Positions 1 to 52,960 of a stretch of 64,000 bases of DNA are shown one piece after another. The notes beneath the pieces were generated by a model that searched no databases, had not been told where the DNA came from, and saw nothing but the letters and a program-made list of their open reading frames with translations. Location: IMG/VR virus record IMGVR_UViG_3300034071_001657. One strand, written 5' to 3'. How positions within the stretch are numbered: the stretch's first letter is position 1; every line of letters begins with the position of its first letter. The position numbers and the translations under genes are program-made. This DNA is from a virus.

Positions 1-655
1 CACTATTGTTTGAATTATATGATAAACCATTTGTTAAAATTAAATGATTATTTCTTCCACTTAAATCCAACATTGAGGGAAAAGTTCCTCTTTCCATTTT
101 CAAGTTTGTATAGTATCGATATCCTGTGTATGCACTACCACCATATCCAACGAACCAAGCAAAATCATTATTGTAATCACTCGGTGTGGTGATTAGATCA
201 TAACAATACTTCCAAGTAATGCCGTTCACAACAACCGTTTTTAAAACTGTTCCTATACCAATTCCAAGTGCAACGTGTGCGCCAGAACTACTATGTGCCC
301 TACAGTGAAACATTCTGCTTCCGTCTGCGCAACTATAGTCACTAGATTCTGCATACCAACCACTTAAACAGTATGCTGTACTTGCAACTAATTGTGATGT
401 AAGGTTGATTTGATATTCGGTATAAGCAACAGTGCCTGTCTGTCTTAGTACAAACGCACTGTCTCCAGGATTAGGAAACGCAATTACTTCATTCGTTGGA
501 TTACTACCACTCTCGTAAGGCATACCAGAGCCATCACCAAACGCACTATTGGTATAGAAGTTTGATGAAAAGACTGTTTGGTTTTTGATTGTTCCTGCAT
601 CCATGCAGAAAACTAAACCATTAGCGACTCCGTTTGGTCCTGATGAAGAACTCAT
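1..655 (-). CDS. LamG/ConA-like lectin paralogue with inserted carbohydrate-binding-like domain (3' truncated by window edge; missing from the ORF track)
   Basis: Manual translation from ATG 655: MSSSSGPNGVANGLVFCMDAG...MLDLSGRNNHLILTNGLSYNSNNS, open to the edge. ATGA overlap with the upstream stop; same N-terminal motif as its neighbours. Confidence 0.8.
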   Translation of the reverse strand, partial: MSSSSGPNGVANGLVFCMDAGTIKNQTVFSSNFYTNSAFGDGSGMPYESGSNPTNEVIAFPNPGDSAFVLRQTGTVAYTEYQINLTSQLVASTAYCLSGWYAESSDYSCADGSRMFHCRAHSSSGAHVALGIGIGTVLKTVVVNGITWKYCYDLITTPSDYNNDFAWFVGYGGSAYTGYRYYTNLKMERGTFPSMLDLSGRNNHLILTNGLSYNSNNS

Positions 656-1389
656 AGTCCGTATCTTCCTTTCCAAGAAATCCAATTCGACGATACTTCA
701 GTTTGAGTAAATGGAAAATTGTAGACTTTTATTGTTGAGCGTCTACCAAAAAATTTCCATCCGTATAGTGTTCCGAACAAGCATCCGCCACCATCATAAA
801 CACTAGTTCCTGAAGTATTATTTGTATTTCCTGTTCCTATTAAATTTCCATTTATATAAAACGAAAAAGTGTTTGCTGATCTATTCCAAACCATTGTTCT
901 AAGTCGCCATGTGTTAAATGTATTATATGGGCTAGGGACAGTAAAGATAATTTCGTCTTCATACGATCCACCAGAACTGCTTGACATGCCCATTTTAAAA
1001 GAGCCTACACCTATACCATGTTGCCAATCAAATCCTGTCGCTCCACCACCATAGGCACTATCACTTACAACAGACCCGCCGTCGGCCTCTGGATAATTCG
1101 TTGAATATGTATATACAGATTCCTCTATTGTCCATCCTCCAGTAGTTGTACTGAAAGTATTATTAATAGTTGTAGAATTTGATGTTGAGATATAAAAAAA
1201 ATCAGAAGTATTAGAAGAATTTTGAAGCCATGTATTCGACTTCTCTCCCAGATTAATTGTTCCATGATTGCCATTTCCGCTCAGATCATACCATGTGGTT
1301 CCACTTCCTGGATAGCTTTTAACATTAGCGGCATCATACGACAAAATCAGTCCCGACAACACCGTTTTTGCTCCATGAAACAAGCTCAT
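652..1389 (-). CDS. LamG/ConA-like lectin domain virion protein
   Basis: Start moved to MSLFHG (ATGA overlap). LSYDAANVKSYPGSGTTWYDLSG N-motif, FYING, C-terminal KGRYGL. Confidence 0.8.
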   Translation of the reverse strand: MSLFHGAKTVLSGLILSYDAANVKSYPGSGTTWYDLSGNGNHGTINLGEKSNTWLQNSSNTSDFFYISTSNSTTINNTFSTTTGGWTIEESVYTYSTNYPEADGGSVVSDSAYGGGATGFDWQHGIGVGSFKMGMSSSSGGSYEDEIIFTVPSPYNTFNTWRLRTMVWNRSANTFSFYINGNLIGTGNTNNTSGTSVYDGGGCLFGTLYGWKFFGRRSTIKVYNFPFTQTEVSSNWISWKGRYGL

Positions 1390-2102
1390 ATACCATACCT
1401 TCCGCGTAGGGCTTGAAAATTTTGCGCGATCTCTGCCGCGCTTAATGCTTTTTTGTATGCCTTGATTACCGATAGTTTTCCAGTATATATGCCGCAGCAA
1501 GGACTGCGCACAATTCCAGGTGCAGACGCATTCTGTGCTGTCTGTGATGCAGGTAAGCCTAGGTAATCCTGATATACTCCATCCAAGTACAATAAAACTC
1601 TTGGAGAGCCAGCCACAGAGCCTGTTCTATTGAACACTGCAACTACCTGATGCCATTTGTTGTTATCAAAAGAACTGGTATATGCAGCAGCGCCCTCTGT
1701 GTAATCAGGACCACATAGAGCATATATTCCATTCGTGCCAACACCAAATCTGAATCCATCACCACCGCCGGCGTTACTTATCAGTCCAACTTGACCAGAA
1801 GAAGAGTTAACATTTTTAACCCAAACTTCAAACGTGTAATCTCCTGTGCTATTGGTAATAGCACCACTAAGACTAAAACCTAGAGAAGAATCTGCCGAAT
1901 AACTGCCTGATGCTGTCGCAAAGTTAAAACATCTAGTAACATCAGTTTCAAAAGGTACAGAGCCAAACATAGAAGCAGTAATACCACTCGAACTTAAATC
2001 GGTCCATGTGGTTCCGCTGCCAGGATAACTTTTTGTGTTACCTGCATCCAAACACAAGGATAAATTCTCGGTGACCGATCTAGGACTGTAAAAAATTGCC
2101 AT
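1386..2102 (-). CDS. LamG/ConA-like lectin domain virion protein
   Basis: [46 protein letters not shown]. Confidence 0.85.
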   Translation of the reverse strand: MAIFYSPRSVTENLSLCLDAGNTKSYPGSGTTWTDLSSSGITASMFGSVPFETDVTRCFNFATASGSYSADSSLGFSLSGAITNSTGDYTFEVWVKNVNSSSGQVGLISNAGGGDGFRFGVGTNGIYALCGPDYTEGAAAYTSSFDNNKWHQVVAVFNRTGSVAGSPRVLLYLDGVYQDYLGLPASQTAQNASAPGIVRSPCCGIYTGKLSVIKAYKKALSAAEIAQNFQALRGRYGI

Positions 2103-2103
2103 A

Positions 2104-2361
2104 TTACATCTCAGTAGGTCTCATCGGCAGCGTCCACTCTTCATTGCTGAGAATAGCTAAGATTTCTTCGTGCGTATATGGGCCCTCTGCGCCTGTGAGT
2201 TCTAGTGTAGAAGCAGGTCTTTCACCTTCCCACTTCACAAATGTCTTTGTGCCATCTACACTTTTTCTTACTGTGTCGGCAGATGATTCTAACACTTCAT
2301 TGAAGTTTACTTTGTCTAACTCTGAGACTGAAAAGATTAAATAATTTCTATCGTTGTACAT
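2104..2361 (-). CDS. Small phage protein of a type that accompanies LamG arrays (possible chaperone/adaptor)
   Basis: Start MYNDRNY with GGAG SD. RKSVDGTKTFVKWEG and GPYTHEEIL motifs. Confidence 0.65.
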   Translation of the reverse strand: MYNDRNYLIFSVSELDKVNFNEVLESSADTVRKSVDGTKTFVKWEGERPASTLELTGAEGPYTHEEILAILSNEEWTLPMRPTEM

Positions 2362-2374
2362 TATGTTCTCCTGA

Positions 2375-3112
2375 TTAAATAACATTATATCTATTTCTAT
2401 GCGCTTTATACTGTACGTTCACCTGTGAAGCAGTATGAGCAACATCATTATAAACTTGCATTGAACCCATGTCTCCGGAATAATATCCCCACCCCCAAAA
2501 CACTCCAACACTGCCCATATTTCCGCCGCCTAATACTCTAGGTGAAGATACTGTCAAAACATAATCTTGTACACCGTTGACATACATGGTCATCGTTGTT
2601 GCACTTGATCTTATAAATGCAAGATGCTGCCACGTTCCTGTGTTAACAGACGCACCAGTGCTTGTATAGTAGTTCCACTGTCCATCGTATTGAAGATAAT
2701 ATAGTTTTCCACCATTTAATCCGTACCCGACGTTTACTGGTCCACCGCTCCAATGAGAGAAAAATCCCATCTGAGCAGATGATGTTGTTCGTATCCAAAA
2801 GTATACGCTGCATACTGTTGACAGTAATACTGGCGTGCTTGTATTACCAGTGACACTATCTTGCATAGAAAAATAATCGTTTGTCCCATCAAACGACATA
2901 TAGCCTAGATGGTCTGATCTAAATATTGGGCCGTTGTTCAGTGTGCTATTTACATTTCCTTGTAAATCATATGCAGTAGAAGAGCCAGAGGTGAATGATA
3001 GTGGTCGAGCAAAATCTATAGCATATGTTAAATTGGTGGGTATTAAACCTACTAGAGAATTTTGTCTCGACTGATTCGCCCAATTTGTAGAAACTCCGTG
3101 ATTTAGTCCCAT
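2375..3112 (-). CDS. LamG/ConA-like lectin domain protein
   Basis: FDGTNDY, WQHLAF, MYVNG, C-terminal AHRNRYNVI. Confidence 0.8.
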
Positions 3113-3114
3113 TT

Positions 3115-4293
3115 CTATACTCCGTACCTTCCACGTAATGCTTGAAAGTTTTGTATCACTTGTTGTGTGGATAACGCGAGATTATAAAATTTTACGTTAC
3201 TGATTGAACCAGACCAATATGCCCCGCCGCCAGTCCAATCATAAATTGATCCGCCTATTTTTACACTGTTGCTCTTATTGACGTTTGTAGATGCATTAGT
3301 CCATGTATTAGTAGAAATTAGTACGCCATTCGCATATAGATATAATTCATTAGCGGTATGTGACCAAACAACTGTAATATTTTTCCATACGTTAGCTTGA
3401 AAAACAGAAGACACTTCTGGAGTAGGCCCGTTGCCATGACCTCCTCCAGTATCCCAATACACAAAGCCTAAATTACTGCCGTTTTGTCTTACTTGCCATT
3501 CCCAATCTAACCCTTTGCCTATTATGCCTCTAGTTTGGGAAACAGTTGATGGCTTACACCAAAAATCTATAGACGCACTATTTGTATTGTTCCAACTTAA
3601 ATCTAAACCTGTATCTATGTAATCGTCTGTAGCATCAAAACTAAAAGTGCCATCCGAAGCATACGATAAATTTTGTGCGGTGATAGTATTATTATTTGTT
3701 AAATCTAAAATAGCCTGTGTGTTTGATCTTGTACCATCTACAAACGGTGAATAAATTGAACCTGCTTCCATTTGAGGCTCTTTCAATTCAAAGATATGAT
3801 TGTACGTCGTGTAATCATCACCGTCCTGCATAAACCATAAAACTCTTGTTGTATTAGCAGGCGTTGTTAAAGTAATAAAAGCTGTTTGCCAATCCTCTTT
3901 ATCAGTAATACCTAATTGTGCTGTAGTAGCAAATGACATCGTGCTTATGTAGCTGACGCCATTATAAGCTTGAATTTGAAAACGTAAGGTGGGCGCGCCT
4001 GCTATTTTTCTATATTTTACAGAAAATGTATATGTTGTACTTGCTGATACACCTTCAATATATGTATTTTGACGAGTATTTTGATTTATATCAGAGATTG
4101 TACAATAATAAGTGCTATTAATAGTACGTGTTCCAATATTACCTTGACCTGAACCATCAACTGACCATGCTGCCCACGAAGGATTTACTAAATTTGTGGT
4201 AGGTTTACCTTTCCAAGACTTCTCGGTGTTATTCGCATCATAACAGAAAACCAGACCACTAGTAGAAATTTCTGGACCTGAGAATGCACTCAT
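3115..4293 (-). CDS. LamG lectin protein with inserted CBM-like jelly-roll domain
   Basis: [11 protein letters not shown]-motif; YTFSV...PQMEAGS insert; FDATDDY; LYANG; [11 protein letters not shown]. Confidence 0.8.
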
Positions 4294-5024
4294 ATGCTAT
4301 ATCTTCCACGATGAGCTTGAAAATTTTGTTGTATATCGGTGTTCGAAAATTTAAATCCATATATTTTTACCACACTAATTCTTCCACTGTACCATCCAGA
4401 TGATCCTCCTCGACTACCGAGATAAAGTGTATAGTTACCAAAGCTTCCTGAGCTAGTCGAAGTGCTTGTAGGATATCCAGGACCAGTAACAAAATTTACT
4501 AAATTACCATCGCAGTATGTCAGTCTTCCTGTGCTATCGGATACTTTAGAAAAAATATTAACATGTGTATTCCAAACAAATCCAGCCGTTTGTATTGCTG
4601 GCGGAGAATGTAAATAATTTCTTACTGCAACACCATTATGATTAGTGTGATGCATGCCTGAAGAGAAACTATTTCCGTCGCTATTAACAGATAACCCCCA
4701 AGCACCGCTGTTTGAATTCCAATCCGCACTATGCTCAATCAGCATCGATGATGGGCCTCCAGCTAACCTAAACCATATTTCGCATACTATGTAATCATAT
4801 GAACTAAGATTTATAGTATTTGTAGAAGCAGCAAAATCATTGAAGCCATCGAATACAATTGCACCGTCGAGAAATCCGATACCATTGTAAAGTGTAAAAT
4901 GATTACCGTTTCCACTTATATCAAACCAAGTGCTTCCACTGCCAGGGTAACTTTTTGTGTTGGCTGCATCTAAACACAGCACCAATGCGTTTGTAACGAT
5001 TCTAGGACTATGATTAAGTGCCAT
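4290..5024 (-). CDS. LamG/ConA-like lectin domain protein
   Basis: [41 protein letters not shown]. Confidence 0.85.
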   Translation of the reverse strand: MALNHSPRIVTNALVLCLDAANTKSYPGSGSTWFDISGNGNHFTLYNGIGFLDGAIVFDGFNDFAASTNTINLSSYDYIVCEIWFRLAGGPSSMLIEHSADWNSNSGAWGLSVNSDGNSFSSGMHHTNHNGVAVRNYLHSPPAIQTAGFVWNTHVNIFSKVSDSTGRLTYCDGNLVNFVTGPGYPTSTSTSSGSFGNYTLYLGSRGGSSGWYSGRISVVKIYGFKFSNTDIQQNFQAHRGRYSI

Positions 5025-5026
5025 TT

Positions 5027-6190
5027 TTATAATCCGTATCTTCCGCGAAGAGCTTGATAATTTTGTCGAATTTCTGCCGCTGACAAAGGACGATTGTATA
5101 ATCTAACAGAAGAAATATTTGAACTACTAGGATATCCGCCGGCATTATAGTCGCCTATGTATGTTGTTGCAGTATATGTTGTTGGCTGATTAGTCATTAC
5201 CTGCGTAGCCTCTTGAGAGCCATTGACATAAATCGTCATATTTGCCCCATCGAAAGTACCAACAACATGATACCAAACACCAGTTGTAAATACTGTAGTC
5301 GAATATATCACACTATATGATGATGCCGTTGTTCCTATAACTTCCCACCTCATTTGATTAGTGCTTCCTGGCATCCAAAAATTTACATAAGACGATGAAT
5401 TAAATCCGAAAAAGCCTTGATTTCGATTTATGGCATTCAGTTTTATCCAGGACTCTAACGTTCCGCCTGATGAGAAATTAAATTCTCTTGAAGTAATAAC
5501 GATTCTATCGTCGATTCCATCAAATAAGATACTTCCTCTGTTAGAAGAATTATATGACGGACCGTTGGTTAATGTTCCATCATTTCCGCGAAGGGTTAAA
5601 TCATTCCATGCGTTTCCGTTTTGATTATAAAAAGGACTAAAGTTCGTAGCGGCACTTCCTCTTTCTAGTTGCAGTCCGTCAACCCACATTGTTACACCTG
5701 TATTATAATTATCTATGCGCACCTGAACAAATGCAGTAGTTCCTTGCGTCATCGTATACGACCCCGACACTCTGGTCCAGCCAGTAGTTACGCTATAAAA
5801 TGTTTGTCCAAGTGCTGTGTAATTGCCAGAAGAGTTTGCTTCAAATATCATCAAAGAAGCAGTGTGTGACGTTGCGCCTTTTACCCAAAAACTAAATGTC
5901 CAAGTTTGTCCTATCGCTGCCGGAGCAAGATTCCATGTAGATGAATTATAAGTGCCTGTATACGCACTAGAACCACTAGTAACTATTTTTAGTGGAACAC
6001 CTCCGACAGGACTATCGGTAACAGAACTATCTCTAGATAGAGTCATTTGATACCCACCACCAGGACCGAACCAAGTATGTGAATCCAAAGGTTGAGGAAA
6101 TACATTCAGACTGTAGCTTTTCATATTAGCGGAATCAAGGGAAAAAATTACTCCGCTGGTTGAAACTCTAGGACTGTAACTTATACCCAT
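5027..6190 (-). CDS. LamG lectin protein with inserted CBM-like domain
   Basis: WTFSFWVKG...WTRVS...DGLQLERGSAAT insert; FDGIDD; WYHVVGTFDG; [11 protein letters not shown]. Confidence 0.85.
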   Translation of the reverse strand: MGISYSPRVSTSGVIFSLDSANMKSYSLNVFPQPLDSHTWFGPGGGYQMTLSRDSSVTDSPVGGVPLKIVTSGSSAYTGTYNSSTWNLAPAAIGQTWTFSFWVKGATSHTASLMIFEANSSGNYTALGQTFYSVTTGWTRVSGSYTMTQGTTAFVQVRIDNYNTGVTMWVDGLQLERGSAATNFSPFYNQNGNAWNDLTLRGNDGTLTNGPSYNSSNRGSILFDGIDDRIVITSREFNFSSGGTLESWIKLNAINRNQGFFGFNSSSYVNFWMPGSTNQMRWEVIGTTASSYSVIYSTTVFTTGVWYHVVGTFDGANMTIYVNGSQEATQVMTNQPTTYTATTYIGDYNAGGYPSSSNISSVRLYNRPLSAAEIRQNYQALRGRYGL

Positions 6191-6447
6191 CAGAAACTCT
6201 CTCCACAGATATGATTTTCCGTGATTGCTCTGATGGCACGAACGTATTCAAATGATGTCAAATTATTCTGTTGAAGAACCATGTCTACTGAATTCCAAAA
6301 TCCATCGATGACTTCCTGTGAGCATTCGCAACTACATATAGCGCGATATGGCACATATCCAAATGGTGCATTGTTGAAATCTATTTCACTTTCAACATCG
6401 CCTTGTATCATGCCTTGCGTCGTTAATATTTGAAAAGTGTATTTCAT
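6190..6447 (-). CDS. Hypothetical protein (85 aa)
   Basis: ORF coupled by 1-nt overlaps to both neighbours. Confidence 0.6.
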   Translation of the reverse strand: MKYTFQILTTQGMIQGDVESEIDFNNAPFGYVPYRAICSCECSQEVIDGFWNSVDMVLQQNNLTSFEYVRAIRAITENHICGESF

Positions 6448-7202
6448 TATCTTACCATTATCATGTATTGATTGGTTCCGCCATGTGTTAATCCATTGGA
6501 GACATAGGTATTGTTTTCAAAGTTTCCGCTACCGTCAGTAGTTGATCCTCCGCACCATGGACCAGCGTAATAGAAATTTGCGCCACAGTATGTAGTGACC
6601 ATAGAAGTAGGCACACCACCATACCCTGCAAATCCGCAACAATCTCGCATGTAGTAAATATTGCTACTAGTTCCTGTTACAGGATAACCTATTGCGCCTT
6701 GCATACCAGGAAATGAATCCGTTCCGTAGACTGCGGTGTTACTTTTTAGTGTTGATGTTGACGCACCTTGTTGAGTATCGCTAGTCAAAAAAGTAGTGTA
6801 GCTTATATCAAACCTTTTGTATATGAAAGGTCCCCAAGCATTATTATTTATGTTCGCTCTGTTGCCAAATATAAACTCTGTAAATGTTCTACTGGTTGCA
6901 TGCCAATATGTCCACCATCCGGCTTGATATGCTTGCGTGAAATCTTTTACTGAGCCTATTGGACCACCTTGCCAGCCCCAATTCTGCCCATTGTAATTCA
7001 CTACCGACGGATGGCTTCTTGCTATCATCATCCAGCCACCGCCGTCTGTAGTCATGTCGCACCAGACTAGTTGTCCAGAATTATTTCTTCCATTTGGCCA
7101 TAGCATGTAATAATTATCTTTTTGATAAAGATAAGGATATTTTTCAAGTAATTCTTTAGCGGTGGATGCCTTAGAGGTGTCTTGATTATAAACTAGTGCC
7201 AT
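6447..7202 (-). CDS. Fibrinogen-related-domain (FReD/intelectin-like) protein
   Basis: VWCDMTTDGGGWMMIAR signature; Cys/Gly-rich C-terminus. Confidence 0.7.
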   Translation of the reverse strand: MALVYNQDTSKASTAKELLEKYPYLYQKDNYYMLWPNGRNNSGQLVWCDMTTDGGGWMMIARSHPSVVNYNGQNWGWQGGPIGSVKDFTQAYQAGWWTYWHATSRTFTEFIFGNRANINNNAWGPFIYKRFDISYTTFLTSDTQQGASTSTLKSNTAVYGTDSFPGMQGAIGYPVTGTSSNIYYMRDCCGFAGYGGVPTSMVTTYCGANFYYAGPWCGGSTTDGSGNFENNTYVSNGLTHGGTNQYMIMVR

Positions 7203-15446: not shown

Positions 15447-16019
15447 TCAACTTTGGTTGACATGCCGATTGATAAAATCTTGATATTTTATTTTAGGTTT
15501 GATATCAATACCTTTACTTTCTAGATATTGTTGTGCTTTTTCTATTCGTTTTGATTCTTCATATTCATTCATTACCTCATAGTAAGTACCAACTCCAATC
15601 TTAATATTTTTACAAATTTTTCTAATCGAATATCCTGCATCCCGCAATTCAATAATTTGTTTGCGTATTTTTTCTCCGTTTTCGCCAGTTATAGTGCTTG
15701 GTCTTCCCCAAGGTTTTCCATCCAATCTTTTTCTTTCAATACCTTCTTTAATTAATTCGCTACTATTAATTTTTTGAAAAGTAACTATACCATGCATAAT
15801 TCTATGATGCCATGAACATAAAGTTATTGTCGAATGCTCACTAATAAATCCCCTATCAAACAAAGCACTAAAGATTTCTTTTGGTGTACAATCTTTAATT
15901 TGTTTTGTATCATCATACTTAAAGTATTTTCTACTTTCTCTAGTATGAACTATTGGATCTATATGGTGTAAATGTAGATCGTCTTTTGATCCACATACTG
16001 CACAAAAATCTAGTTTCAT
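15447..16019 (-). CDS. HNH endonuclease fused to a resolvase-type arm and HTH (putative free-standing homing endonuclease)
   Basis: CAVCG..LHLHHIDP...ITLCSWHHRIMH; IKEGIERKRLDGKPWGRP; GYSIRKICKNIKIGVGTYY; more AT-rich than its flanks. Confidence 0.75.
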   Translation of the reverse strand: MKLDFCAVCGSKDDLHLHHIDPIVHTRESRKYFKYDDTKQIKDCTPKEIFSALFDRGFISEHSTITLCSWHHRIMHGIVTFQKINSSELIKEGIERKRLDGKPWGRPSTITGENGEKIRKQIIELRDAGYSIRKICKNIKIGVGTYYEVMNEYEESKRIEKAQQYLESKGIDIKPKIKYQDFINRHVNQS

Positions 16020-16035
16020 TATTTTATTTTCCAAA

Positions 16036-17592
16036 TTAAGGTTTATAGAATACGAAGATCGGCTCGTACTTGAGCCACATGCCGTTGACTTTGCAAAAGT
16101 TCTTGGCTTTGGGCAGACCAGTCTCAGAGTCCAATCGATTGCCGCCAGGCATCTGAGCCAAAGACATCTTGACCACACCTTTATACTGCATGCCTAACTC
16201 TTCAAGAATCTTTCGGCTGTCTTCTTCGAGAGGCAGCATATCTGCACCAAACTTTGCATCGGCAATATTCCACAGCAGATAACGATCATTGCGTAACCAC
16301 TCAACCGCAGTCTTCAGTGTTGGACGTAGAAAGCCCTCGCGCCATGCATCATAGCCAGTAAATTTTTTGTACGATTGTGTCGGGTCTTCACTATACGCCT
16401 CTTTTGCAAAGTAAGGCGGTGAAGTGAAGACCATATCTAGTTGTCCTTTGTATTCTTGGAATCGCTTGTCTTCTCCGATGACTTCGGAGCCCAATTGATA
16501 TACATCGAAACTATGGGAATTCTTAAACAAAACTCCTGCGTTCTTGGAGGCATTATAGAAATTAGCCAAATCGGCATACTTAGTAGAATTATCATCAATA
16601 GTGTGATCGGTATTAGGATCAGTACCCACATAGTGAAGAGGAACGCCAGTGCGAGCAGACATGGCACCGAGAATACGACCACCCCAACCACTAGAGGGAT
16701 CGTATACCACAATTCGAGTTTGGTTTTTAATGTGTTTAGTAAATTTTTCATAGAGGTACTTTGCAGTAAGTGGAGGAAAATTAACAGCGTACTGGCACCA
16801 CGAAACGCGAAATGCTTTCAGCCCGAGAGGAAACAACTTCTGACCATACTTGTACATGCGCAGGCGCAACTTCGTACTTGTTGGGTCTTTGATATTCTTC
16901 TTACAGTTTTCTGGAATACTCTCTACACTTGTAACTTCAAGATATTTTGCACCTTTCAAGTCTTCATTATAGCCAGTGTATTCATCGTCTTCATCACGGG
17001 ATTCGATCCAGTAGTCATATCCATAGTTACGGATGTTGTTTGATTCGAACCATTGTACAAATTCATCTCCAGTTTTAAACTTTCGCTTGTGGGTACCAAT
17101 CTGCACCAGTTCACCGATTTTGATTGTGTTAGAGTAGTGATAAAAAGAATCGCGTTTGAAATGTCTCTTTGCATATTTAAGAGTCTTCTCTAAAAGATCA
17201 TCACGGACAAAATGATCATAAATTGATAACCCGTCATCGTTCTTTGTGTAGTTGATTCGAGTCTTCATCATTGTGGGAAACCATTGATTGGCAGCATTGC
17301 CAACAACGCTTGTGTTGCGAACTACATCTTTTTCGCCTGTGAGTTCGTCGACCTGTTCAAATTCATGGACTGGAAACGAATGCATCTCTCGAAACTGTTT
17401 TCGAATCTCATCTTCATTCCACCCTACTCTAGGTGGTTGTCCTAGAACATCCCATGCGTAAACCACCGCCTTGCGTAGATCGATGAACCATTGTTTGAAT
17501 TCATCGTCAGTCATCCATTGTACTTGTTCGAACGTCTTGTTCGTTTCGTGATTTAATAGCCAATCATTGCGTTCGTAAAAATGTTTAGTCAT
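16036..17592 (-). CDS. Amino-group DNA methyltransferase-like protein (SPPY, probably N4-C) with a large N-terminal region
   Basis: YDPSSGWGGR (SAM-binding motif I), FTSPPYF (motif IV). Confidence 0.75.
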   Translation of the reverse strand: MTKHFYERNDWLLNHETNKTFEQVQWMTDDEFKQWFIDLRKAVVYAWDVLGQPPRVGWNEDEIRKQFREMHSFPVHEFEQVDELTGEKDVVRNTSVVGNAANQWFPTMMKTRINYTKNDDGLSIYDHFVRDDLLEKTLKYAKRHFKRDSFYHYSNTIKIGELVQIGTHKRKFKTGDEFVQWFESNNIRNYGYDYWIESRDEDDEYTGYNEDLKGAKYLEVTSVESIPENCKKNIKDPTSTKLRLRMYKYGQKLFPLGLKAFRVSWCQYAVNFPPLTAKYLYEKFTKHIKNQTRIVVYDPSSGWGGRILGAMSARTGVPLHYVGTDPNTDHTIDDNSTKYADLANFYNASKNAGVLFKNSHSFDVYQLGSEVIGEDKRFQEYKGQLDMVFTSPPYFAKEAYSEDPTQSYKKFTGYDAWREGFLRPTLKTAVEWLRNDRYLLWNIADAKFGADMLPLEEDSRKILEELGMQYKGVVKMSLAQMPGGNRLDSETGLPKAKNFCKVNGMWLKYEPIFVFYKP

Positions 17593-18067
17593 TCTCATTC
17601 ACTTTTCTTATAAAGATGCCACATTTATTTAGGAAATTTAATCCATCGTTCGCTCGATAATCTTCGGCATAGAAAACTTCTTTGATACCTGATTGATAGA
17701 TCATTTTAGCACACTCTAGACATGGTGCACAAGTTACAAAGAGACTTGCACCGTTACCGCTTTCGGTAGACTTGGCAAGTTTGGCAATGGCATTCGATTC
17801 AGCATGAAGGACTTCTGGTTTTGTTTTCAGTCCAACGTATGAGTATTCAAGACCAGGACCACCTTGTTCTTTAAACGCAACATCTTGTAAAACGATTTCG
17901 TCTTCGCAATTGTTATCCCATCCACTTGGCATACCATTGTAGCCAATGGAAATAATTCGATCATCTTTGACTACAATCGCGCCGACCTTTTTTCTCCTCG
18001 CGGTACTCAAGTTGCCGAACACTCTGGCAGACTTCATATATGCACCAAGATATTTTTCTTTAATCAT
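17585..18067 (-). CDS. cd: dCMP deaminase
   Basis: GYNG, HAESNA, PCLEC zinc motifs. Confidence 0.93.
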   Translation of the reverse strand: MIKEKYLGAYMKSARVFGNLSTARRKKVGAIVVKDDRIISIGYNGMPSGWDNNCEDEIVLQDVAFKEQGGPGLEYSYVGLKTKPEVLHAESNAIAKLAKSTESGNGASLFVTCAPCLECAKMIYQSGIKEVFYAEDYRANDGLNFLNKCGIFIRKVNEND

Positions 18068-18842
18068 TTTTAATTCCCAAAGTGGCATTTAACTTCGTTA
18101 AATCTGCACACGTATATTCTTGATAATTTTGTCTAATGTTATCTGGCATAGGCACTTCGACAATTTTCGCATTCGTTTTTTCTGCTACATGTTTCGCCAC
18201 ACTCAAAAATGAAGTGGGTGTTCCTGTGCCAACATTCCAAATTCCACACTCATCAATGTCTAGAAATTTTTCATGAACATCAAGAACTCGATTCACATGA
18301 ATAAAATCTCTCTGATATTTTTCTGAATTTTCAAATACTTTTATTTGACCACTGTTAATAGCTTGCTGTTCGAATTTGTGATACGGAGAAGCTTGATCAC
18401 CTTTGTGGTCTTCATGTGGCCCGTAGACATTGAAATATCTAAACCCTTGCAAAACAGTTTCAAGATAAAAGTGTGTAGAGTGCCTTTCAATTAGAAATTT
18501 AGACCACGCATATGGGCTTCTAGGATCAACTGAAGAACTTTCTTTGAACTCTTTGCCCGAACCATAAACAGAGGCTGAACTAGAATATTGTAATTTGACT
18601 CGCCAAAACGCACAGGCCCTAATTAGTTTTACTGTAAAGTCAAAGTTTTGTCGTAAGACTTTTTCAACATCACGTTCGACTGTTGATGACACTGCACCAA
18701 AATGCATAACAGTGTCAATATCAGCAAGATTCGGAAAAGTATTTTCATTGTAATCATACACAGTAATTTTATGTTTTTTGGAGAACCGCTCGACGGCATT
18801 CTGTCCTATAAATCCTTTGTTACCAGTAATCAATATGTTCAT
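18060..18842 (-). CDS. hldD: ADP-L-glycero-D-manno-heptose 6-epimerase
   Basis: TGNKGFIG, GAVSST, SSASVYG, YAWSK, RYFNVYGPHEDHKG.QAS, RDFIHV. Confidence 0.85.
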   Translation of the reverse strand: MNILITGNKGFIGQNAVERFSKKHKITVYDYNENTFPNLADIDTVMHFGAVSSTVERDVEKVLRQNFDFTVKLIRACAFWRVKLQYSSSASVYGSGKEFKESSSVDPRSPYAWSKFLIERHSTHFYLETVLQGFRYFNVYGPHEDHKGDQASPYHKFEQQAINSGQIKVFENSEKYQRDFIHVNRVLDVHEKFLDIDECGIWNVGTGTPTSFLSVAKHVAEKTNAKIVEVPMPDNIRQNYQEYTCADLTKLNATLGIKND

Positions 18843-19578
18843 GTATATCTTTCTCTGTTAAAGTATATGATCCAAAGTGTTTTACTGATTCTGTAGATAG
18901 CTTAATTGCACACTGTATTGCGTAGTCCATGTCTTCGGTATCGAGATACACTGAAGACAGAACCGCAAGAAAAACATCTCCTGCGCCAGTTACATCATGT
19001 ACAGAAACACTCGGTGCTTCATAGTGTTTGTCTGCTCTCTTTGCACCATCTGCCCCTAGTGTGACAATCAACTCTTTTGGAAATTCATGACCAGTCGATT
19101 CATTATATTCTAACTCATTTATCTTAACAATGCAACCACTATACACGCTTAAGTTCTTTTTCTTTGTGTCCACGAAGATTGGTTTATTCTGCCATCGCTC
19201 TTTGATTTGGCAAATAAGTTCCTCGGTAACAAAGCCTTTATCATAGTCTGATATGACTATGGCATCATAATTCCGCAGAAATTTATCAACAGGAAAAACA
19301 ACCTGTTCGCTTTCATAGCTCTTGGTGTCGATTCTGAGTAGTTGATGACTTGTTCGAATGTCAATATATCTTTCTTTTTTCGAGAATGGTCCATGCACAA
19401 AATCAATTGTGTTATCGAACGCCTTTAGGTTTCGATACACATTGAATGCCATGCCTGTAAATTCTTTACTGAATTTATAGTCCATGATAGGCACTGGTGC
19501 TTCAGGCGAAAGTCTCGAACATGTTCCATAATGATAGACATCTAAACAGATATCACCAACCAAAAGAATTCTACTCAT
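18820..19578 (-). CDS. hldA: Heptose-7-phosphate kinase (stand-alone PfkB domain of HldE)
   Basis: RLSPEAPVP, ISDYDKG, DVTGAGDVF. Confidence 0.85.
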   Translation of the reverse strand: MSRILLVGDICLDVYHYGTCSRLSPEAPVPIMDYKFSKEFTGMAFNVYRNLKAFDNTIDFVHGPFSKKERYIDIRTSHQLLRIDTKSYESEQVVFPVDKFLRNYDAIVISDYDKGFVTEELICQIKERWQNKPIFVDTKKKNLSVYSGCIVKINELEYNESTGHEFPKELIVTLGADGAKRADKHYEAPSVSVHDVTGAGDVFLAVLSSVYLDTEDMDYAIQCAIKLSTESVKHFGSYTLTEKDIHEHIDYW

Positions 19579-19961
19579 AGTTTTTTGATTTTTTCAATTT
19601 CGCTTGTCGATGAATATGTGTTGAGCCTTGGAAAAAATTGAATGACGCCGTGAGGCACTTTTGCATTTTTGTGATCGGACCCACGCAGCGTAATGTCTGG
19701 CTCATACGATGAGATAATGGATTCTAATTCTTCGTCTGTACCAAAAGCAACAACATCATCAACCCATTTTAAATTTCTAATCAATGTCATTCTTTCAAAT
19801 AGACTATTGATTGGTCGGCTTTCACCCTTCAATGATTTAACTCTGATATCAGAATCAATTGCAACTAGTAAATAATCGCCTAGACTTTTTGCATGTTTCA
19901 GTAAACTGATATGACCAAAATGCACTACATCAAAAGTTCCGTTCACAAATATTTTTTTCAT
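19575..19961 (-). CDS. hldC: Heptose-1-phosphate adenylyltransferase (stand-alone domain of HldE)
   Basis: NGTFDVVHFGH, KGESRPIN, SSTS. Confidence 0.85.
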   Translation of the reverse strand: MKKIFVNGTFDVVHFGHISLLKHAKSLGDYLLVAIDSDIRVKSLKGESRPINSLFERMTLIRNLKWVDDVVAFGTDEELESIISSYEPDITLRGSDHKNAKVPHGVIQFFPRLNTYSSTSEIEKIKKL

Positions 19962-20314
19962 TTTTGACTATCTCCAGGATAAACTCTGTAATTATCTTCA
20001 ACACTATCTGGCGTGCTAACTTCAATAATTGTGCCTTCTTCTAAGCACTCTAGTTGATGTGGCAATAACGGTTCGTTTCTCCAGACATTTCCAACATTCA
20101 ATTCGTTTTCATGTATTTTAGCAGTCTTTGTATCTATGTGTCTAACTAAGAATTTACCAGACAACACATACCAAGTTTCATCTTTCTCGGAATGAAAGTG
20201 CATGCTGAACTTCGCACCTGTATTGAACTTCAAAAGCTTTCCGCAATACTTATCGTTGGTGATCCATATAAGTTCGTGACCCCATCCCTTTTCAATTTTG
20301 CCCGATAATCTCAT
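19958..20314 (-). CDS. Cupin, sugar-isomerase-like
   Basis: KGWGHE, SMHFHSEKDETWY, PH, EVST..DNYR. Confidence 0.8.
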   Translation of the reverse strand: MRLSGKIEKGWGHELIWITNDKYCGKLLKFNTGAKFSMHFHSEKDETWYVLSGKFLVRHIDTKTAKIHENELNVGNVWRNEPLLPHQLECLEEGTIIEVSTPDSVEDNYRVYPGDSQK

Positions 20315-21084
20315 GCTACATTCCATATTAAAGAGTTTTCTTTTGCATGTTCATTTACGAAAGTCCAAATCTTTGCATCATAAAATGCTTCTGATGGATA
20401 TGGAGGCTTTTCGCTGTCTTTTACTTCTTTGTCAAATTTGTATTTCGACACATATAATTTAGCACGACCAAGCTCTCGCTCAGTCATCTTATGGCCTATT
20501 TGTACCGCGTGTGCGGGCAAATCGGGAAAGGCCATTTGCAGCCCGCGGTTTAATGTGCCGCTGCTTGCGACAGTCCAAATTTCTTTTATCTCAGAGGAGC
20601 AAGGCAGTTCTCTGGCAATTTTAATAATGCTGCCTAGTACACTAGGATGTTCTAGGCCTAGCGGCAATGTTTTTCTTGTGTTAGGACTTTCTTCACAATA
20701 TGCTTTTGCTCTAGATAAAGTCACATTCAACATGCCCATGTTGACCCAGTGAATTGTTCCACCCATATCTAAAACTTGTTGCTGATGCCATGTGGGTGTT
20801 TCTCTCTTTGCCATGAAAAATGTTGCTTTCTTTCCATATCTATTGCACACATGCGTGAGAGAGATTGGACCCCAACCGACTTTGTTCGCGCCGCCGAACA
20901 CCCATTCTTCGGTAGGATCATTTTTAATAAGATGGTCGATAAATCTAACTTTGCTTCCGCAGCCTAACAAATCATCACGAACAACAAAAAATTTATCTTG
21001 ACGTTCTACAATTGGTTTAGGGTTCGGATCAGTCCAGTCTTTGACATATTCGAGATAGTGTTCAGGCGTTAACAAGTTTGTCAT
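20311..21084 (-). CDS. PLP-dependent fold-type II enzyme (ACC deaminase/cysteine-synthase-like phage family)
   Basis: VVRDDLLGCGSKVR (PLP lysine), VASSGT phosphate loop, YDAK. Confidence 0.7.
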   Translation of the reverse strand: MTNLLTPEHYLEYVKDWTDPNPKPIVERQDKFFVVRDDLLGCGSKVRFIDHLIKNDPTEEWVFGGANKVGWGPISLTHVCNRYGKKATFFMAKRETPTWHQQQVLDMGGTIHWVNMGMLNVTLSRAKAYCEESPNTRKTLPLGLEHPSVLGSIIKIARELPCSSEIKEIWTVASSGTLNRGLQMAFPDLPAHAVQIGHKMTERELGRAKLYVSKYKFDKEVKDSEKPPYPSEAFYDAKIWTFVNEHAKENSLIWNVA

Positions 21085-22159
21085 ACAAAGGCCTTTCAAC
21101 TTTAACATCAATCACAAGATGAATTCTTTCATCGTCTCCACCATTGATTGCTTGATGGGCTTTTCGAGTATCGAGAAACCAATACTCACCAAACTTCATA
21201 TTGATTTTCTGTGGAACACCTTGTGTGTTCCACACAGTAAAAACTACATTCTCATTCGTCTTGATTGGCACGTGAATTCTTGCAAGCTTGCCCATGCTGC
21301 CACCAGAATCAGGATCGACTTGATCAGTATGCCTTTCCAGTTCACCGCCGCCAGGCTTCAGCCTCATAAATCTAACTCGATGAACTTCAGTGCCTAGAGT
21401 GTTGACAAACTCTCGTACTTCAGGAAAAAGATCATAGAGTTTAGTATCTTGTAAACGAAAATCTTGATCTTTGTTTTCTTCTTTCCACTTATCATTCATC
21501 TCAATTGGCTTTGTGATAAACGATGGATCTGAAGTGTATCCTCTCAATGATAATGCAGACCATGAATTATCTTTATTATAGTTACTGTAATGATTTGTGA
21601 ACTGTGGTAGAGAATTTAGTTTTTGATAAATCGATGAAACAAAGTTTTCATCCACGTTTCCAATCTTTTTAATAGAGAGGAACTCAGCAGGATCAACGTT
21701 AGGAAACGCTCTCTGTGTTCCTTTGTAGTAGATAGCATGTATTTCTCCATAGGTTGTGATTTTAGGACCGACATAACAAAATCCTAAGTCTTCTGCTAAC
21801 TTGCAATGCTCTTCATTCTCTGCCCATACATATAGCCAAAAAGAAGTTCCGTTCAGTGCTTTAATTTGAGACTCTAGCGTAGAAATGTTTCCAACCAATT
21901 TGCCAATCGTAATGTCACCCTTTAGCTTTTTTGCAATCACGGTTGACCCATGCATAGTGATATCTGATGCAGATTTACTAGTTGAGACTTCCATCATTGC
22001 ATCACCAAGATTGACAAGGGTTCCTTTGTGCAAGGCTTCTGCAATATTATTCTTTTTAAACTTGGCGAACGGCGAAAGTGTGTATGCATTATAATCTGCA
22101 TACTTCGCCTCAAGTTCTTTTAAATAATCTAATTCATATCCGTATTGCCATTCTTTCAT
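21062..22159 (-). CDS. GNAT-like domain fused to an Asp/Asn beta-hydroxylase-type 2OG-Fe(II) oxygenase
   Basis: C-terminal HTD...RIHVPIKTN...HQAIN...RIHLVID; N-terminal VWAEN...LGFCYVG resembles a degenerate GNAT motif. Confidence 0.7.
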   Translation of the reverse strand: MKEWQYGYELDYLKELEAKYADYNAYTLSPFAKFKKNNIAEALHKGTLVNLGDAMMEVSTSKSASDITMHGSTVIAKKLKGDITIGKLVGNISTLESQIKALNGTSFWLYVWAENEEHCKLAEDLGFCYVGPKITTYGEIHAIYYKGTQRAFPNVDPAEFLSIKKIGNVDENFVSSIYQKLNSLPQFTNHYSNYNKDNSWSALSLRGYTSDPSFITKPIEMNDKWKEENKDQDFRLQDTKLYDLFPEVREFVNTLGTEVHRVRFMRLKPGGGELERHTDQVDPDSGGSMGKLARIHVPIKTNENVVFTVWNTQGVPQKINMKFGEYWFLDTRKAHQAINGGDDERIHLVIDVKVERPLYDKLVNA

Positions 22160-42938: not shown

Positions 42939-43787
42939 CTATACTCCCATCTGCTTTCTTATTTTTGTGGCAGAAATGCTATGAATAGACTCATCAAAGA
43001 CTTCTTGCTCAATCTTATATCCGACATCTCTACCGTAAGTAATATTTACAACATTTGGAACAACTTGAATTTCATATTGACCTTGATAAAGAGGGTCTAA
43101 GTCTCTGCGAATGAAATTTTTGACTTGTTCTATGGCAAATGGGTTTGTTCCTTGCCAGCCTTGACAGTCTCGAATTTGAATAATCACCTGCCCTGTTTTA
43201 GATAAAGCACGTTCGAACAAAGCACGATGTCCAGGATGCCAAGGCTGCCAGCGTCCAAGCATTTGTACAGTTTCTTTTTTCCAATCAAACGATGGACGCC
43301 TTTGATTCTTTAGAATCCTTTCACCGACGTAAGGAACCCATTTCTCAGCATTCTGTTCAGTAACTCTGAAATCATAAATGTCGGGAGGAACAAAAGCTTT
43401 ATTGGTATCTTCGTATCTACCCGCATCAATCGAATCGATCCAGATTGTCCAATCTGCTTTGAAATTGTGGCGCATTTCTGGTAATGGTGCAACGAAATCA
43501 CAGATTACATAATCGGCCGAACAAGTTAATGCAAACTCAGCCATGCGAATGCTTTGTCGAATTCTACCCTCTCTACTGAAGTCCCAATCATTGTATTTTT
43601 TTCTCACTTCATCAGCATTGAACCACTGAACACTTACAACGTTACTTCTAGGTACGCTTTCTAGCGTAGTAAGTCTAATACTAGATAGATTTTGAATTGT
43701 GCCGTTTTCTTCAAGATATTTTTTAAGTCTTTCGGCAAAGTATGTCTTTCCCGCGCCTGGCAAACCCATAATCAAGATTTTTTTCAT
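42939..43787 (-). CDS. APS-kinase-like domain fused to an HxGH nucleotidyltransferase
   Basis: GLPGAGKT, NADEVR, DFSREGRIRQ; C-terminal GRWQPWHPGH and SISATKIR. Confidence 0.8.
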   Translation of the reverse strand: MKKILIMGLPGAGKTYFAERLKKYLEENGTIQNLSSIRLTTLESVPRSNVVSVQWFNADEVRKKYNDWDFSREGRIRQSIRMAEFALTCSADYVICDFVAPLPEMRHNFKADWTIWIDSIDAGRYEDTNKAFVPPDIYDFRVTEQNAEKWVPYVGERILKNQRRPSFDWKKETVQMLGRWQPWHPGHRALFERALSKTGQVIIQIRDCQGWQGTNPFAIEQVKNFIRRDLDPLYQGQYEIQVVPNVVNITYGRDVGYKIEQEVFDESIHSISATKIRKQMGV

Positions 43788-43788
43788 T

Positions 43789-44739
43789 TCACGTTATCCT
43801 TTTAGAAAAGATTCTTTTAACTATTTTTTGAATACTTTCATCACTATCATCAGTGCATTCTATGTCATAATAAACTGGAGGAACATAAATTTCATTCAGT
43901 TCTTGATATTTAGATTCTTTTTTGTCGCTAACCCAAACTATAATATCGGGATTTAATATTTGCCTCATTTTAGGTAGGGGGCACACCATATTAATTATTG
44001 TAACTCCAGTCTGAGAATTTCTTGCCAAATTTAACATTCGATAACAATGTCGCATTTGACCATCAGGCGTGAAGTCAACGTCTTTATGCTTAATTCTTTC
44101 TTCTATTGAACTTAATATAGAAGAACTTTCAAATATTGCGTTAAGTTTTTTTGCAACTGAATTTTTTGATGATTCTGGCAAGCCCATAACTAAAATTCTA
44201 AATTTGTTGTCTGCTAATAGTCGATAATATTGTATCATACCTTCTTCTAAAGAATGAAACACCCAAGGTCTGAAAAATAAACATTGATTGGTATTCAATA
44301 AAATATTGGTATGTATTTTCCATTCAAATAAATTTCTATAATTAAAATCTGTTCTTTCTAGAGCATTTTGTGCATTTACAGTTGCAAACTCCCCCATTCG
44401 ATTTGTTTCATCAACATGATACCAAAAATTTACAGTTGTTGGTTCAAGCGCAACCATAAAACACCATTCTTCTGTAGAATCAAATTCTTCAAAATGAATT
44501 AAATTGTGAGATGGTTTTCGTATGACACCCGATCTTTTTATGTCAACGGTAACTCGTTCTCCCAAAACTTTATAGAAAATTTGTTCACTATCAGGAAAAA
44601 TTAAATTAAAATTTGGTATTTCCATTCCGTGTTGGGTTTCAACAAAAGTTAATCCTTCACTAACGCTTTTTAAATTTTCTGCGTCATTATCTGGAAAAAA
44701 TTTGTCGGCATGCACAAGTTGCACCATTCTTCTACTCAA
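43789..44739 (-). CDS. 2OG-Fe(II)-oxygenase-like domain fused to a degenerate APS-kinase-like domain
   Basis: LIHFEE, FFRPWVFHS; then ILVMGLPESSKN, DVDFTPDGQMR; start may be ATG 44727. Confidence 0.55.
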   Translation of the reverse strand: MSRRMVQLVHADKFFPDNDAENLKSVSEGLTFVETQHGMEIPNFNLIFPDSEQIFYKVLGERVTVDIKRSGVIRKPSHNLIHFEEFDSTEEWCFMVALEPTTVNFWYHVDETNRMGEFATVNAQNALERTDFNYRNLFEWKIHTNILLNTNQCLFFRPWVFHSLEEGMIQYYRLLADNKFRILVMGLPESSKNSVAKKLNAIFESSSILSSIEERIKHKDVDFTPDGQMRHCYRMLNLARNSQTGVTIINMVCPLPKMRQILNPDIIVWVSDKKESKYQELNEIYVPPVYYDIECTDDSDESIQKIVKRIFSKRIT

Positions 44740-44740
44740 T

Positions 44741-45448
44741 TTACCATTCTCCTGTCCAGTGTTTTAATCCATTTTCTTTGTAAAAATTTCTCTTCATTGT
44801 TTCATGATCTTCAATAATTTCTTTTCCTCTATAGATAAATGTGTTATATGGTGGATTTTCTTCATAAATTAATAAACCAGAAAAAGATTTTAATTTATCC
44901 AAAAGGTCTAAAAATACATCTTCTCCAGGATTGGTGTTTATTATTTTTTGTGTGAATGTGTATGTTACCGAATGCATATATGTCTGGGGGCCCAAAAAAT
45001 AAACGCCGTGATGTCCTTGTTTTCTTCTAAAAAGATAAAGGTCTATGGTGTTAGCAAACAAGATATTACCAGGCTCACTAATCATAATGTCGTGAGAAAA
45101 ATCATAATGTCTACAAGTAGGTAAAACTTGTTTTACATTGTCTGATATAACAGTATCTAAATGCACATTCGCCAATCTGTCTAGATCAACGTATATTCCA
45201 CCTTCATAGTACATTTTATATAGTCTCCAAATGTCAGTCTTTGGCACAATATGAAAATTTTCTACAAGACGAAAATCCACTCCCATATTTTCTCTGAGAT
45301 AATCAATTATTTCCTCGTCGGTATGAACAGAAAATTCCCAATTGGAATTTAAGCTTCTTAATCTTTGTGCTCCAAGTTTGATCAGATCAAATTCACTGTC
45401 TAGAATATTTTTGTCATTCCACGACAAGTGAATCTTTTTTGGAATCAT
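44741..45448 (-). CDS. Glycosyltransferase, GT32/OCH1-like
   Basis: IPKKIH, DIWR, GGIYVDLD, GP, KHWTGEW. Confidence 0.85.
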   Translation of the reverse strand: MIPKKIHLSWNDKNILDSEFDLIKLGAQRLRSLNSNWEFSVHTDEEIIDYLRENMGVDFRLVENFHIVPKTDIWRLYKMYYEGGIYVDLDRLANVHLDTVISDNVKQVLPTCRHYDFSHDIMISEPGNILFANTIDLYLFRRKQGHHGVYFLGPQTYMHSVTYTFTQKIINTNPGEDVFLDLLDKLKSFSGLLIYEENPPYNTFIYRGKEIIEDHETMKRNFYKENGLKHWTGEW

Positions 45449-46212
45449 CTCCAAACTTCCATGTTAGAATATACTTTAATTAAATCAGGAGGAATGATAA
45501 AATTTCTAGGCTTATATTGAACTCTTCGATTAACCTTGTGTAAAGGAACTCCAATTTCTTTATCATATTCATCCCAATTTCCTTCGACATTATTAAAATC
45601 GTGATCAAAAAAAGGTTCATCAATAAAAGAATATATGGCTTTCATTATTAAGTCTGGAGTTTGACACAATCTATCATATTCGACTATTAGAAGCTTATGT
45701 TTTTCATTACCTGTGATAGCTTGTTTAATTCCAATATATGGAAACCCAATTATACCCGTATTTCCCATAAGTGCTTCTGCTCTAGAATATACCGTCCCCC
45801 CAATACTTCCGCTTACTGTGTTGACGGTCATGGGATTTTCAACGTGTGCTTTTTCAAATGAGTCTATAATCCAAGCGATGTCTCTGACACAAACAATAAA
45901 TCTAGATTCTGGAAAAATAGCATTGACTTGAGGAGTCAAAAGAGTCCAGGCTCTATTCGTGTTGAAAATAACTTCTTTGTCTATTTCTTGATAATACCCA
46001 CTAAACATTCCTTTCACAGTATTAACTCTTCGTGAAATAGGAACTTCATATTTAATTCCAGGCCCAGTTTGTATTGTTTCTATAACACCCTTTGTAATAT
46101 CAGCAAGAGGATCGGTAATTGATGCGTGAAATCTAGGATTTTGTTTCAGAATAGAACTTAAAAGTGTTGATCCTGATCTAGGCAATCCTGTAATAAAGTG
46201 ATACTTTTTCAT
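45445..46212 (-). CDS. PAPS-dependent sulfotransferase
   Basis: GLPRSGSTLL (5'-PSB), VCVRD...S (3'-PB), VEYDRL. Confidence 0.88.
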   Translation of the reverse strand: MKKYHFITGLPRSGSTLLSSILKQNPRFHASITDPLADITKGVIETIQTGPGIKYEVPISRRVNTVKGMFSGYYQEIDKEVIFNTNRAWTLLTPQVNAIFPESRFIVCVRDIAWIIDSFEKAHVENPMTVNTVSGSIGGTVYSRAEALMGNTGIIGFPYIGIKQAITGNEKHKLLIVEYDRLCQTPDLIMKAIYSFIDEPFFDHDFNNVEGNWDEYDKEIGVPLHKVNRRVQYKPRNFIIPPDLIKVYSNMEVWR

Positions 46213-46213
46213 A

Positions 46214-46891
46214 TTAACGTTCTTGTCCATTTGATGCCTTTTTCCTTTTAGTGATTGTTGTTTCTTCGTGTGGAAGATCATATGCGTAAAATCCTCCTTG
46301 TATTACGCCAAAAACATCCGTTCTAATAGTTATATCTAGAGACTCGTTGATTCCATATTTCAAAGTGTGTGCCAATAAATTTTTAGCACTCAAAGGATCA
46401 ATTGCATATGCATGGGCCCTAAGAATGAATTTGTAGTTTGCGTTTTTCTGAGCCATTGGAGGAATTGGAGTGACGGCCCAACCTGATGCTTGTTCTCTGC
46501 CACCAAGATATACAATTTGATTGTATCCATGATGATTTGTGTATGGCATGACCATTATTGAATCATGTTCTAAAATAACAATGGGCATATTTACTTCTAT
46601 ACAGTGCGCCCATAAACTAGCATGGCTTAAATATACAGCAACTTCAGTAATGCTAAGTTCAGTGTCGTATTGTTTAATCCAATTAATCCAATTTTGATTT
46701 CTTAAGTTTTCGGGTATGACTATTTCACCAGAAGTGCCATCAAAGGCGTCCCATATTTCATACTTTTGTTCAACTCTTTCACAACTAAGTTGACACCTTC
46801 GAGACAGCATTTCACTCAATTCATGATTTTTAAGTGTGATGATATAAGCCTTATCGACGGTCATGTCGTTACATGGCATAAGTGTTTTCAT
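46214..46891 (-). CDS. Glycosyltransferase, GT25-like
   Basis: AYIITL, AFDG, SHASLW, ILEHD, AHAYAI. Confidence 0.8.
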   Translation of the reverse strand: MKTLMPCNDMTVDKAYIITLKNHELSEMLSRRCQLSCERVEQKYEIWDAFDGTSGEIVIPENLRNQNWINWIKQYDTELSITEVAVYLSHASLWAHCIEVNMPIVILEHDSIMVMPYTNHHGYNQIVYLGGREQASGWAVTPIPPMAQKNANYKFILRAHAYAIDPLSAKNLLAHTLKYGINESLDITIRTDVFGVIQGGFYAYDLPHEETTITKRKKASNGQER

Positions 46892-46898
46892 AAATTAC

Positions 46899-51654: not shown

Positions 51655-51671
51655 TTATTTTTCTCCAAAAA

Positions 51672-52946: not shown

Positions 52947-52960
52947 CTTTTTTCAACCAA

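Follow-up and report, generated by a model that had tools for sequence, protein, structure and literature searches.

A candidate DNA hypermodification module built around a methyltransferase-fold protein and split by a heptose cassette in a T4-like phage

How might a phage attach an amino acid to the bases of its DNA without starting from thymidine? In the thymidine hypermodification pathways of phages M6, ViI and PaMx11, an entry enzyme is followed by amino-acid tailoring with a decarboxylase and an acetyltransferase, and the fold-type-II pyridoxal phosphate (PLP) enzymes M6 gp52 and ViI gp226 have been proven to decarboxylate amino acids conjugated to bases in DNA and require a free primary amine (PMC8989533). 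In the caprazamycin and muraymycin systems, the AspH-type hydroxylase Cpz10 beta-hydroxylates an aminobutanoyl (four-carbon) chain that is proposed to derive from S-adenosylmethionine (SAM), Mur23, a PLP enzyme, acts as a decarboxylase on the same intermediate, and Cpz13 is the proposed transferase of the four-carbon chain from SAM (PMC9814697). The locus described here resembles both. It lies in a 64,000-nucleotide stretch of the IMG/VR virus record IMGVR_UViG_3300034071_001657 (the window), where eight minus-strand open reading frames, each overlapping the next, form one run from 16036 to 22159. The run encodes a methyltransferase (MTase) fold, a GNAT fold joined to an AspH-type dioxygenase and a PLP enzyme, which we call the core, together with four heptose-type genes and a dCMP deaminase. 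The core is a widespread enzyme set whose probable function is to attach an amino-acid-like chain to DNA bases and then to trim it, and the heptose part is ordinary. The genes, their overlaps and their fold identities are as a sequence-only reading of the locus had given them, and are supported by profile matches (AspH-type PF05118 at E 1e-12; cupin; cytidylyltransferase; PfkB kinase; epimerase; dCMP deaminase; and, weakly, N6_N4_Mtase) and by predicted structure.

Related viral loci were retrieved using the genes for MTase, oxygenase and PLP enzyme and were kept if they spanned the whole interval from gp46 to cobT/glycosyltransferase/gp45, which gave 56 distinct loci; these are related phages picked by their core genes, and the counts are not independent events. 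The MTase is encoded in 55 of the 56 loci, the GNAT domain in 52, the AspH domain in 49 and the PLP enzyme in 33, with GNAT and AspH occurring as separate genes in some T4-like relatives. The same parts are also found joined: single proteins of 1,057-1,191 aa combine MTase, a GNAT-like segment, AspH and PLP, two-domain MTase-PLP fusions measure about 680 aa, and further MTase-PLP fusions occur in both domain orders. The four-domain and the 680-aa fusions adjoin resolvase, integrase or restriction-modification (R-M) genes, on integrative elements. Because the four genes travel together and fuse, we conclude that MTase, GNAT, AspH and PLP enzyme are a functional module, in agreement with the sequence-only reading, which had grouped them.

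The PLP enzyme (20311..21111, minus strand; probable start ATG 21084), a core member in about 60% of relatives, is the clearest link to described DNA chemistry. It matches phrog_7093 at E 1e-31 and is a relative of both M6 gp52 (BLASTP E 3e-10; hhalign 98%) and ViI gp226 (hhalign 98%), so that the kinship with phage thymidine-tailoring enzymes suspected earlier is borne out. The invariant K54 corresponds in the alignments to M6 K36 and ViI K92, the proposed catalytic lysines of those enzymes (PMC8989533). In some relatives the PLP slot is filled by a ViI-like clade, and the pairing thus spans at least two PLP clades; in a tree, the ViI-like clade groups with ViI gp226 and the PLP enzyme of the window falls across a long central branch with M6 gp52, the long branches leaving the deep topology uncertain. 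The gene is missing from 22 of the 55 loci with the MTase and from one 98%-complete genome. Being dispensable, it fits a tailoring step and is unlikely to be the entry enzyme. A related PLP domain also occurs at L166:8001-12293 (P0024), in a 1,430-aa protein with a faint match to PF01358 (poxvirus cap-methyltransferase-like) that possibly belongs to a giant virus.

The fused protein at 21062..22159 (minus strand) consists of a GNAT domain (about aa 9-151) and an AspH/proline-hydroxylase-type Fe(II)/2-oxoglutarate (2OG) dioxygenase (about aa 160-355). The former was unseen by hidden Markov models and is shown by the predicted structure (residues 9-149, Z 11.9 to 2pc1). The latter has a jelly-roll fold in which H277-T-D279...H335 and the 2OG arginine R345 are invariant, and the best structural matches of its model are a proline hydroxylase (Z 15.5) and Cpz10 (Z 15.2), above AlkB-like folds. 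The acetyl-CoA pyrophosphate loop (motif A, QxxGxG/A) is deleted in the fused GNAT and kept in stand-alone relatives, which match PF00583; because the fused domain has no such loop, acetylation in this phage appears doubtful. Three loci with the ViI-like PLP clade (L115, L120 and L142) encode the loop-less GNAT-AspH fusion and, in addition, a stand-alone GNAT with an intact acetyl-CoA loop. A complex prediction for the MTase and GNAT-AspH proteins scored 0.00, which speaks neither way.

The remaining core protein (16036..17598, minus strand) has a class I SAM-dependent amino-methyltransferase fold, and is the candidate entry enzyme. Its motif I (DPSSGWGG) and motif IV (TSPPYF) are invariant, and the large extra N-terminus seen in the sequence-only reading amounts to an extension of about 255 aa. 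The fold, the SAM motif I and the SPPY motif IV are those of the orphan phage N4-cytosine/N6-adenine methyltransferases (PF01555), from which the protein differs in scoring below the Pfam cut-off (22.7 bits against 26.7), in the 255-aa extension and in its near-constant tailoring partners. Sequence searches of the PDB with it returned noise or nothing. The family is large, with 270 viral loci and 199 clusters at E < 1e-30.

Some side observations concern the fusions. Four- and two-domain fusions were located on small integrative elements at L159:4658-9238, L162:9340-13000 and L165:5859-9765, each directly preceded by an unannotated gene of 224-325 aa; L162 also has an integrase and, from reading, an HUH-motif Rep-like gene, and R-M genes lie near the fusions in L159 and L162. 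The neighbours of bacterial fusions were considered as restriction enzymes and set aside, having no Pfam or PADLOC support, and a scan of genome contigs with the Nitrosomonas fusion gave no match.

What, then, would place an amino acid on the base in the first place? Where the dUMP hydroxymethylase, the 5-hydroxymethyldeoxyuridine (5-hmdU) kinase and the amino-acid:DNA transferase (ADDT) stand in the M6, ViI and PaMx11 pathways, the relatives studied here have the SAM-dependent SPPY enzyme and the AspH hydroxylase. The ThyA-family dUMP hydroxymethylase (PF00303) was found in 0 of 5 relatives (3 complete), with 10 control genomes positive, nor is it in the window, for which the absence of an hmdU synthase had already been reported; the hydroxymethylases of ViI and M6, used as queries, gave no tblastn match in the relatives. 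Neither 5-hmdU kinase and ADDT nor TET/JBP and DpdA had a match in the complete or near-complete relatives, one search in each pair giving no positive-control signal. The core works like the M6 and ViI pathways, with a homologous PLP enzyme that has the catalytic lysine in common, but for want of an hmdU synthase it is not a member of their group.

The acp (3-amino-3-carboxypropyl) group of SAM is itself an amino acid with a free alpha-amine. Tailoring of this kind presupposes an amino acid already on the base, complete or near-complete relatives yielded no other entry enzyme, and the SPPY enzyme is constant; we therefore propose that this enzyme transfers the acp group. The proposal also draws on Cpz10 and Mur23, because these act on a chain proposed to derive from SAM and Cpz10 is among the top fold matches of the hydroxylase. 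The likeness lies in an AspH-type hydroxylase and a PLP decarboxylase working on the four-carbon amino-acid chain of a nucleoside; unlike the substrate proposed here, theirs is a small molecule, its chain is installed by Cpz13 and not by an MTase fold, and Mur23 is likened by function only. A likeness in reaction logic is seen in microcin C, where an MTase-fold acp transfer to a peptide-adenylate is followed by PLP decarboxylation (MccD/MccE), and in wybutosine, where acp transfer on tRNA is followed by 2OG-dependent hydroxylation (TYW2/TYW5). We know of no system of either type that acts on DNA.

In the proposed sequence of reactions, the MTase fold would bind the exocyclic amine of adenine (N6) or cytosine (N4) in phage DNA and would transfer to it the acp arm of SAM instead of the methyl group. 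The AspH-type enzyme would hydroxylate the beta carbon of the acp chain, and the PLP enzyme, where present, would decarboxylate the chain to an aminopropyl or amino-hydroxypropyl group. In some relatives, a catalytic stand-alone GNAT would then acetylate the amine; the GNAT fused to the hydroxylase in this phage probably serves in substrate binding only. The likely role would be a sequence-limited protection from host nucleases. We regard acp transfer to N6 of adenine or N4 of cytosine by the MTase fold, followed by hydroxylation and/or decarboxylation, as a serious but tentative possibility. With comparable reserve, we suggest that widespread 'DNA methyltransferases' of phages and mobile elements may be acp transferases that start a thymidine-independent hypermodification of adenine or cytosine, to which hydroxylation, decarboxylation and acetylation add variety and which in some cases is the work of one four-domain enzyme.

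That the target would be DNA is suggested by cultured phages. Erythrobacter phage ZS04 has, near its terminase, a ParB-MTase whose motifs I and IV are separated by an inserted PLP domain, and Mae-JY30 and Pam4 carry related MTase and PLP pairs. Among mycobacteriophages of cluster B, the ParB-terminase slot differs from phage to phage: in Rosebush it holds DpdA/Que (dPreQ0) genes, and dPreQ0 has been measured in Rosebush DNA (PMC6884629); in LilMcDreamy it holds TET, ADDT and a full-length GNAT-AspH homologue; and in Vincenzo, which encodes no tRNA genes, it holds an MTase and a PLP enzyme. Because of the homology of the PLP enzyme to M6 gp52 and ViI gp226, the position of ParB-MTases near the terminase and the slot held in common with DNA-modification genes, the substrate of the core is probably DNA, and we lean towards the view that some DNA modification beyond methylation is made. 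As a separate observation, genes 1-4 of LilMcDreamy (L155:1-3759) encode ParB, a TET/JBP-like protein (annotated as queuine tRNA-ribosyltransferase), ADDT and GNAT-AspH, with no 5-hmdU kinase among them; on these genes, LilMcDreamy is a candidate for a cultured phage with an uncharacterised thymidine hypermodification.

A number of observations weigh against acp transfer onto DNA and have to be set beside its rivals. SPPY and motif I are the canonical, ordinary signature of N4-methylcytosine/N6-methyladenine (m4C/m6A) enzymes, the MTase model is closest to the true methyltransferases Trm11 and TrmN (Z 14.8), and the fold searches singled out no acp transferase. The MTase stands alone in 2 of the 56 loci, and shorter relatives of it occur in the cultured phages DAC16, PMS2 and Vibrio 2.058.O with no recognisable PLP, GNAT or AspH neighbour. 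The ParB-MTases of cultured phages are only distant kin of the window MTase (hhalign 91%, E 1e-6), and Cpz10 is level with proline hydroxylases and human AspH among the fold matches, so that the fold does not fix the substrate of the hydroxylase. The motifs, the structural matches and the solo homologues would all suit a plain m4C/m6A DNA methyltransferase, with the PLP enzyme, GNAT and hydroxylase as helpers with a small-molecule substrate (SAM or methionine by-products) or some other target. We consider this rather unlikely, since it does not account for the recurrent fusion to homologues, belonging to two clades, of decarboxylases that act on DNA, for the PLP domain placed within the MTase fold of ZS04 or for the presence of GNAT-AspH beside the ADDT in LilMcDreamy. 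Among the fold matches, the best are tRNA N2-methylguanosine (m2G) methyltransferases, AspH-type enzymes often act on peptides, and the related phages carry 15-25 tRNA genes; the same tailoring chemistry might thus be directed at tRNA, other RNA or protein, for which wybutosine is the comparison. However, Vincenzo has the MTase and PLP pair and no tRNA genes, the ParB fusions adjoin the terminase and the slot is common to proven DNA-modification genes, and we hold such a target to be quite improbable.

Hypermodification of DNA might also proceed in a different order. The MTase could methylate the base, the oxygenase could oxidise the methyl group and an amino acid could then be attached, a methylase-then-oxygenase logic that is established for loci with C5-MTase and TET (PMC13229309); or the PLP enzyme could transfer the acp group from SAM in the way proposed for Cpz13 and its four-carbon chain (PMC9814697), with the MTase acting as an N-methylase. 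Against the former stand the AspH type of the oxygenase, ranked above AlkB-like folds, and its position in LilMcDreamy beside a TET that already oxidises the methyl group; against the latter stands the absence of the PLP gene from two-fifths of the loci with the MTase and from a 98%-complete genome, which makes it an unlikely entry enzyme. Such orders seem to us unlikely.

The genomes of the relatives bear on the protective role suggested for acp transfer. Per 50 kb, they lack 8-12 of the 6-bp palindromes and ViI lacks 3, and their mean palindrome avoidance (0.63-0.80) shows no separation from that of ViI (0.70). Because the relatives avoid many restriction sites, a blanket shield is disfavoured, and any modification is probably sequence-limited. 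CGCG is wholly absent from three relatives (G002, G003 and G005) and AGCT is nearly absent from a fourth (G004), with many 6-bp palindromes absent too; this pattern of missing sites in G002-G005 points to strong restriction pressure from their hosts.

Should an NPPY-type fold be confirmed to transfer acp onto DNA, hypermodified bases would have a new route of entry, hundreds of viral loci of one family would be affected and annotations as orphan methylases would have to be reconsidered. A literature search found no report of such a transfer and no description of the core module; Iyer et al. 2013, outside its coverage, may have predicted related loci.

The genes that split the core in the window tell a different story. 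Between the PLP enzyme and the MTase lie a sugar-isomerase-like cupin (19958..20326; probable start 20314, ATGA-coupled), an HldC-like heptose-1-phosphate adenylyltransferase (19575..19961), an HldA-like heptose-7-phosphate kinase (18820..19578), an HldD-like ADP-heptose 6-epimerase (18060..18842) and a dCMP deaminase (17585..18088), all on the minus strand, with ATGA junctions between PLP and cupin (20314-20311), cupin and HldC, and HldC and HldA. The sequence-only reading had raised the possibility of one pathway in which a heptose forms part of the base modification, and in its strong form this means that ADP-heptose is attached to the modified base. In its favour are the overlap of all the genes in a single run, the same position of the cupin-HldC-HldA trio in a small group of close relatives and a glycosyltransferase-like gene about 5 kb away. 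Against it, the trio is present in only 1 of the 56 loci and HldD in none. In the reverse search, the core genes were near 0 of 80 loci fetched by HldD and 2 of 80 fetched by the cupin, and cupin, HldC, HldA and HldD accompanied one another in 53-73 of 80 loci. HldA is missing from three complete genomes that keep the core, and in genome G003 the trio lies 60 kb away. Genes of the rfaE type in small clusters are, moreover, already known as lipopolysaccharide-related genes of aquatic myophages (PMC7029224). A shared pathway is therefore highly improbable.

On the strength of the reverse search, the complete core genomes without HldA and the distant trio of G003, we conclude that cupin-HldC-HldA-HldD is a mobile inserted cassette. 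The dCMP deaminase, present in 15 of the 56 loci and located elsewhere in many relatives, is an ordinary T4-like nucleotide gene and not, as had been supposed, a member of the pathway. The run is thus almost certainly two unrelated modules, a base-modification core split by a heptose cassette and a dCMP deaminase; the fallback of the sequence-only reading, two or more independent modules, proved to be the correct one, and the gene-neighbourhood analysis that it had called for joins the four core genes across the 56 loci and leaves the heptose genes outside. The best NCBIfam matches of HldC, HldA and HldD are rfaE domain II, rfaE domain I and ADP-heptose epimerase, all below curated cut-offs. 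The likeness to the heptose clusters of aquatic myophages lies in the split HldA and HldC, the HldD and the small mobile format; here, in contrast, GmhA and GmhB are not in the run, though the host could supply them, and the cupin is a constant extra partner. The cassette would turn host precursors into ADP-heptose, which probably goes into surface glycans. It is very common in viral contigs, in varied gene contexts (at least 598 cupin loci), and in 21 loci it is accompanied by a 104-aa HAD-like gene that might be the missing phosphatase.

To judge from its translations, the window comes from an uncultured T4-like myophage (gp23, gp55, gp47, gp46, peptide deformylase, cobT/cobS, gp45 and gp44), and the run is flanked by gp46/peptide deformylase on one side and by cobT/cobS/gp45 on the other. 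Promoter and terminator scans of the run stayed at chance level, and its coding strand has no T4 late promoter. Directly after the MTase lies a gene with HNH and helix-turn-helix motifs (15447-16178, probable start 16016) that looks like a recent mobile endonuclease; as a cognate restriction endonuclease of the MTase it was rejected, since none of the related loci has a homologue. In the structural region, a second block of accessory genes (42939-49621) reads as an APS-kinase-like/nucleotidyltransferase fusion, a sulfotransferase-like protein, glycosyltransferases and an FkbM-like methyltransferase, and tandem paralogous LamG-like and RCC1-repeat genes at 652-7202 and 49688-54211 are, from their translations, probably tail-associated.

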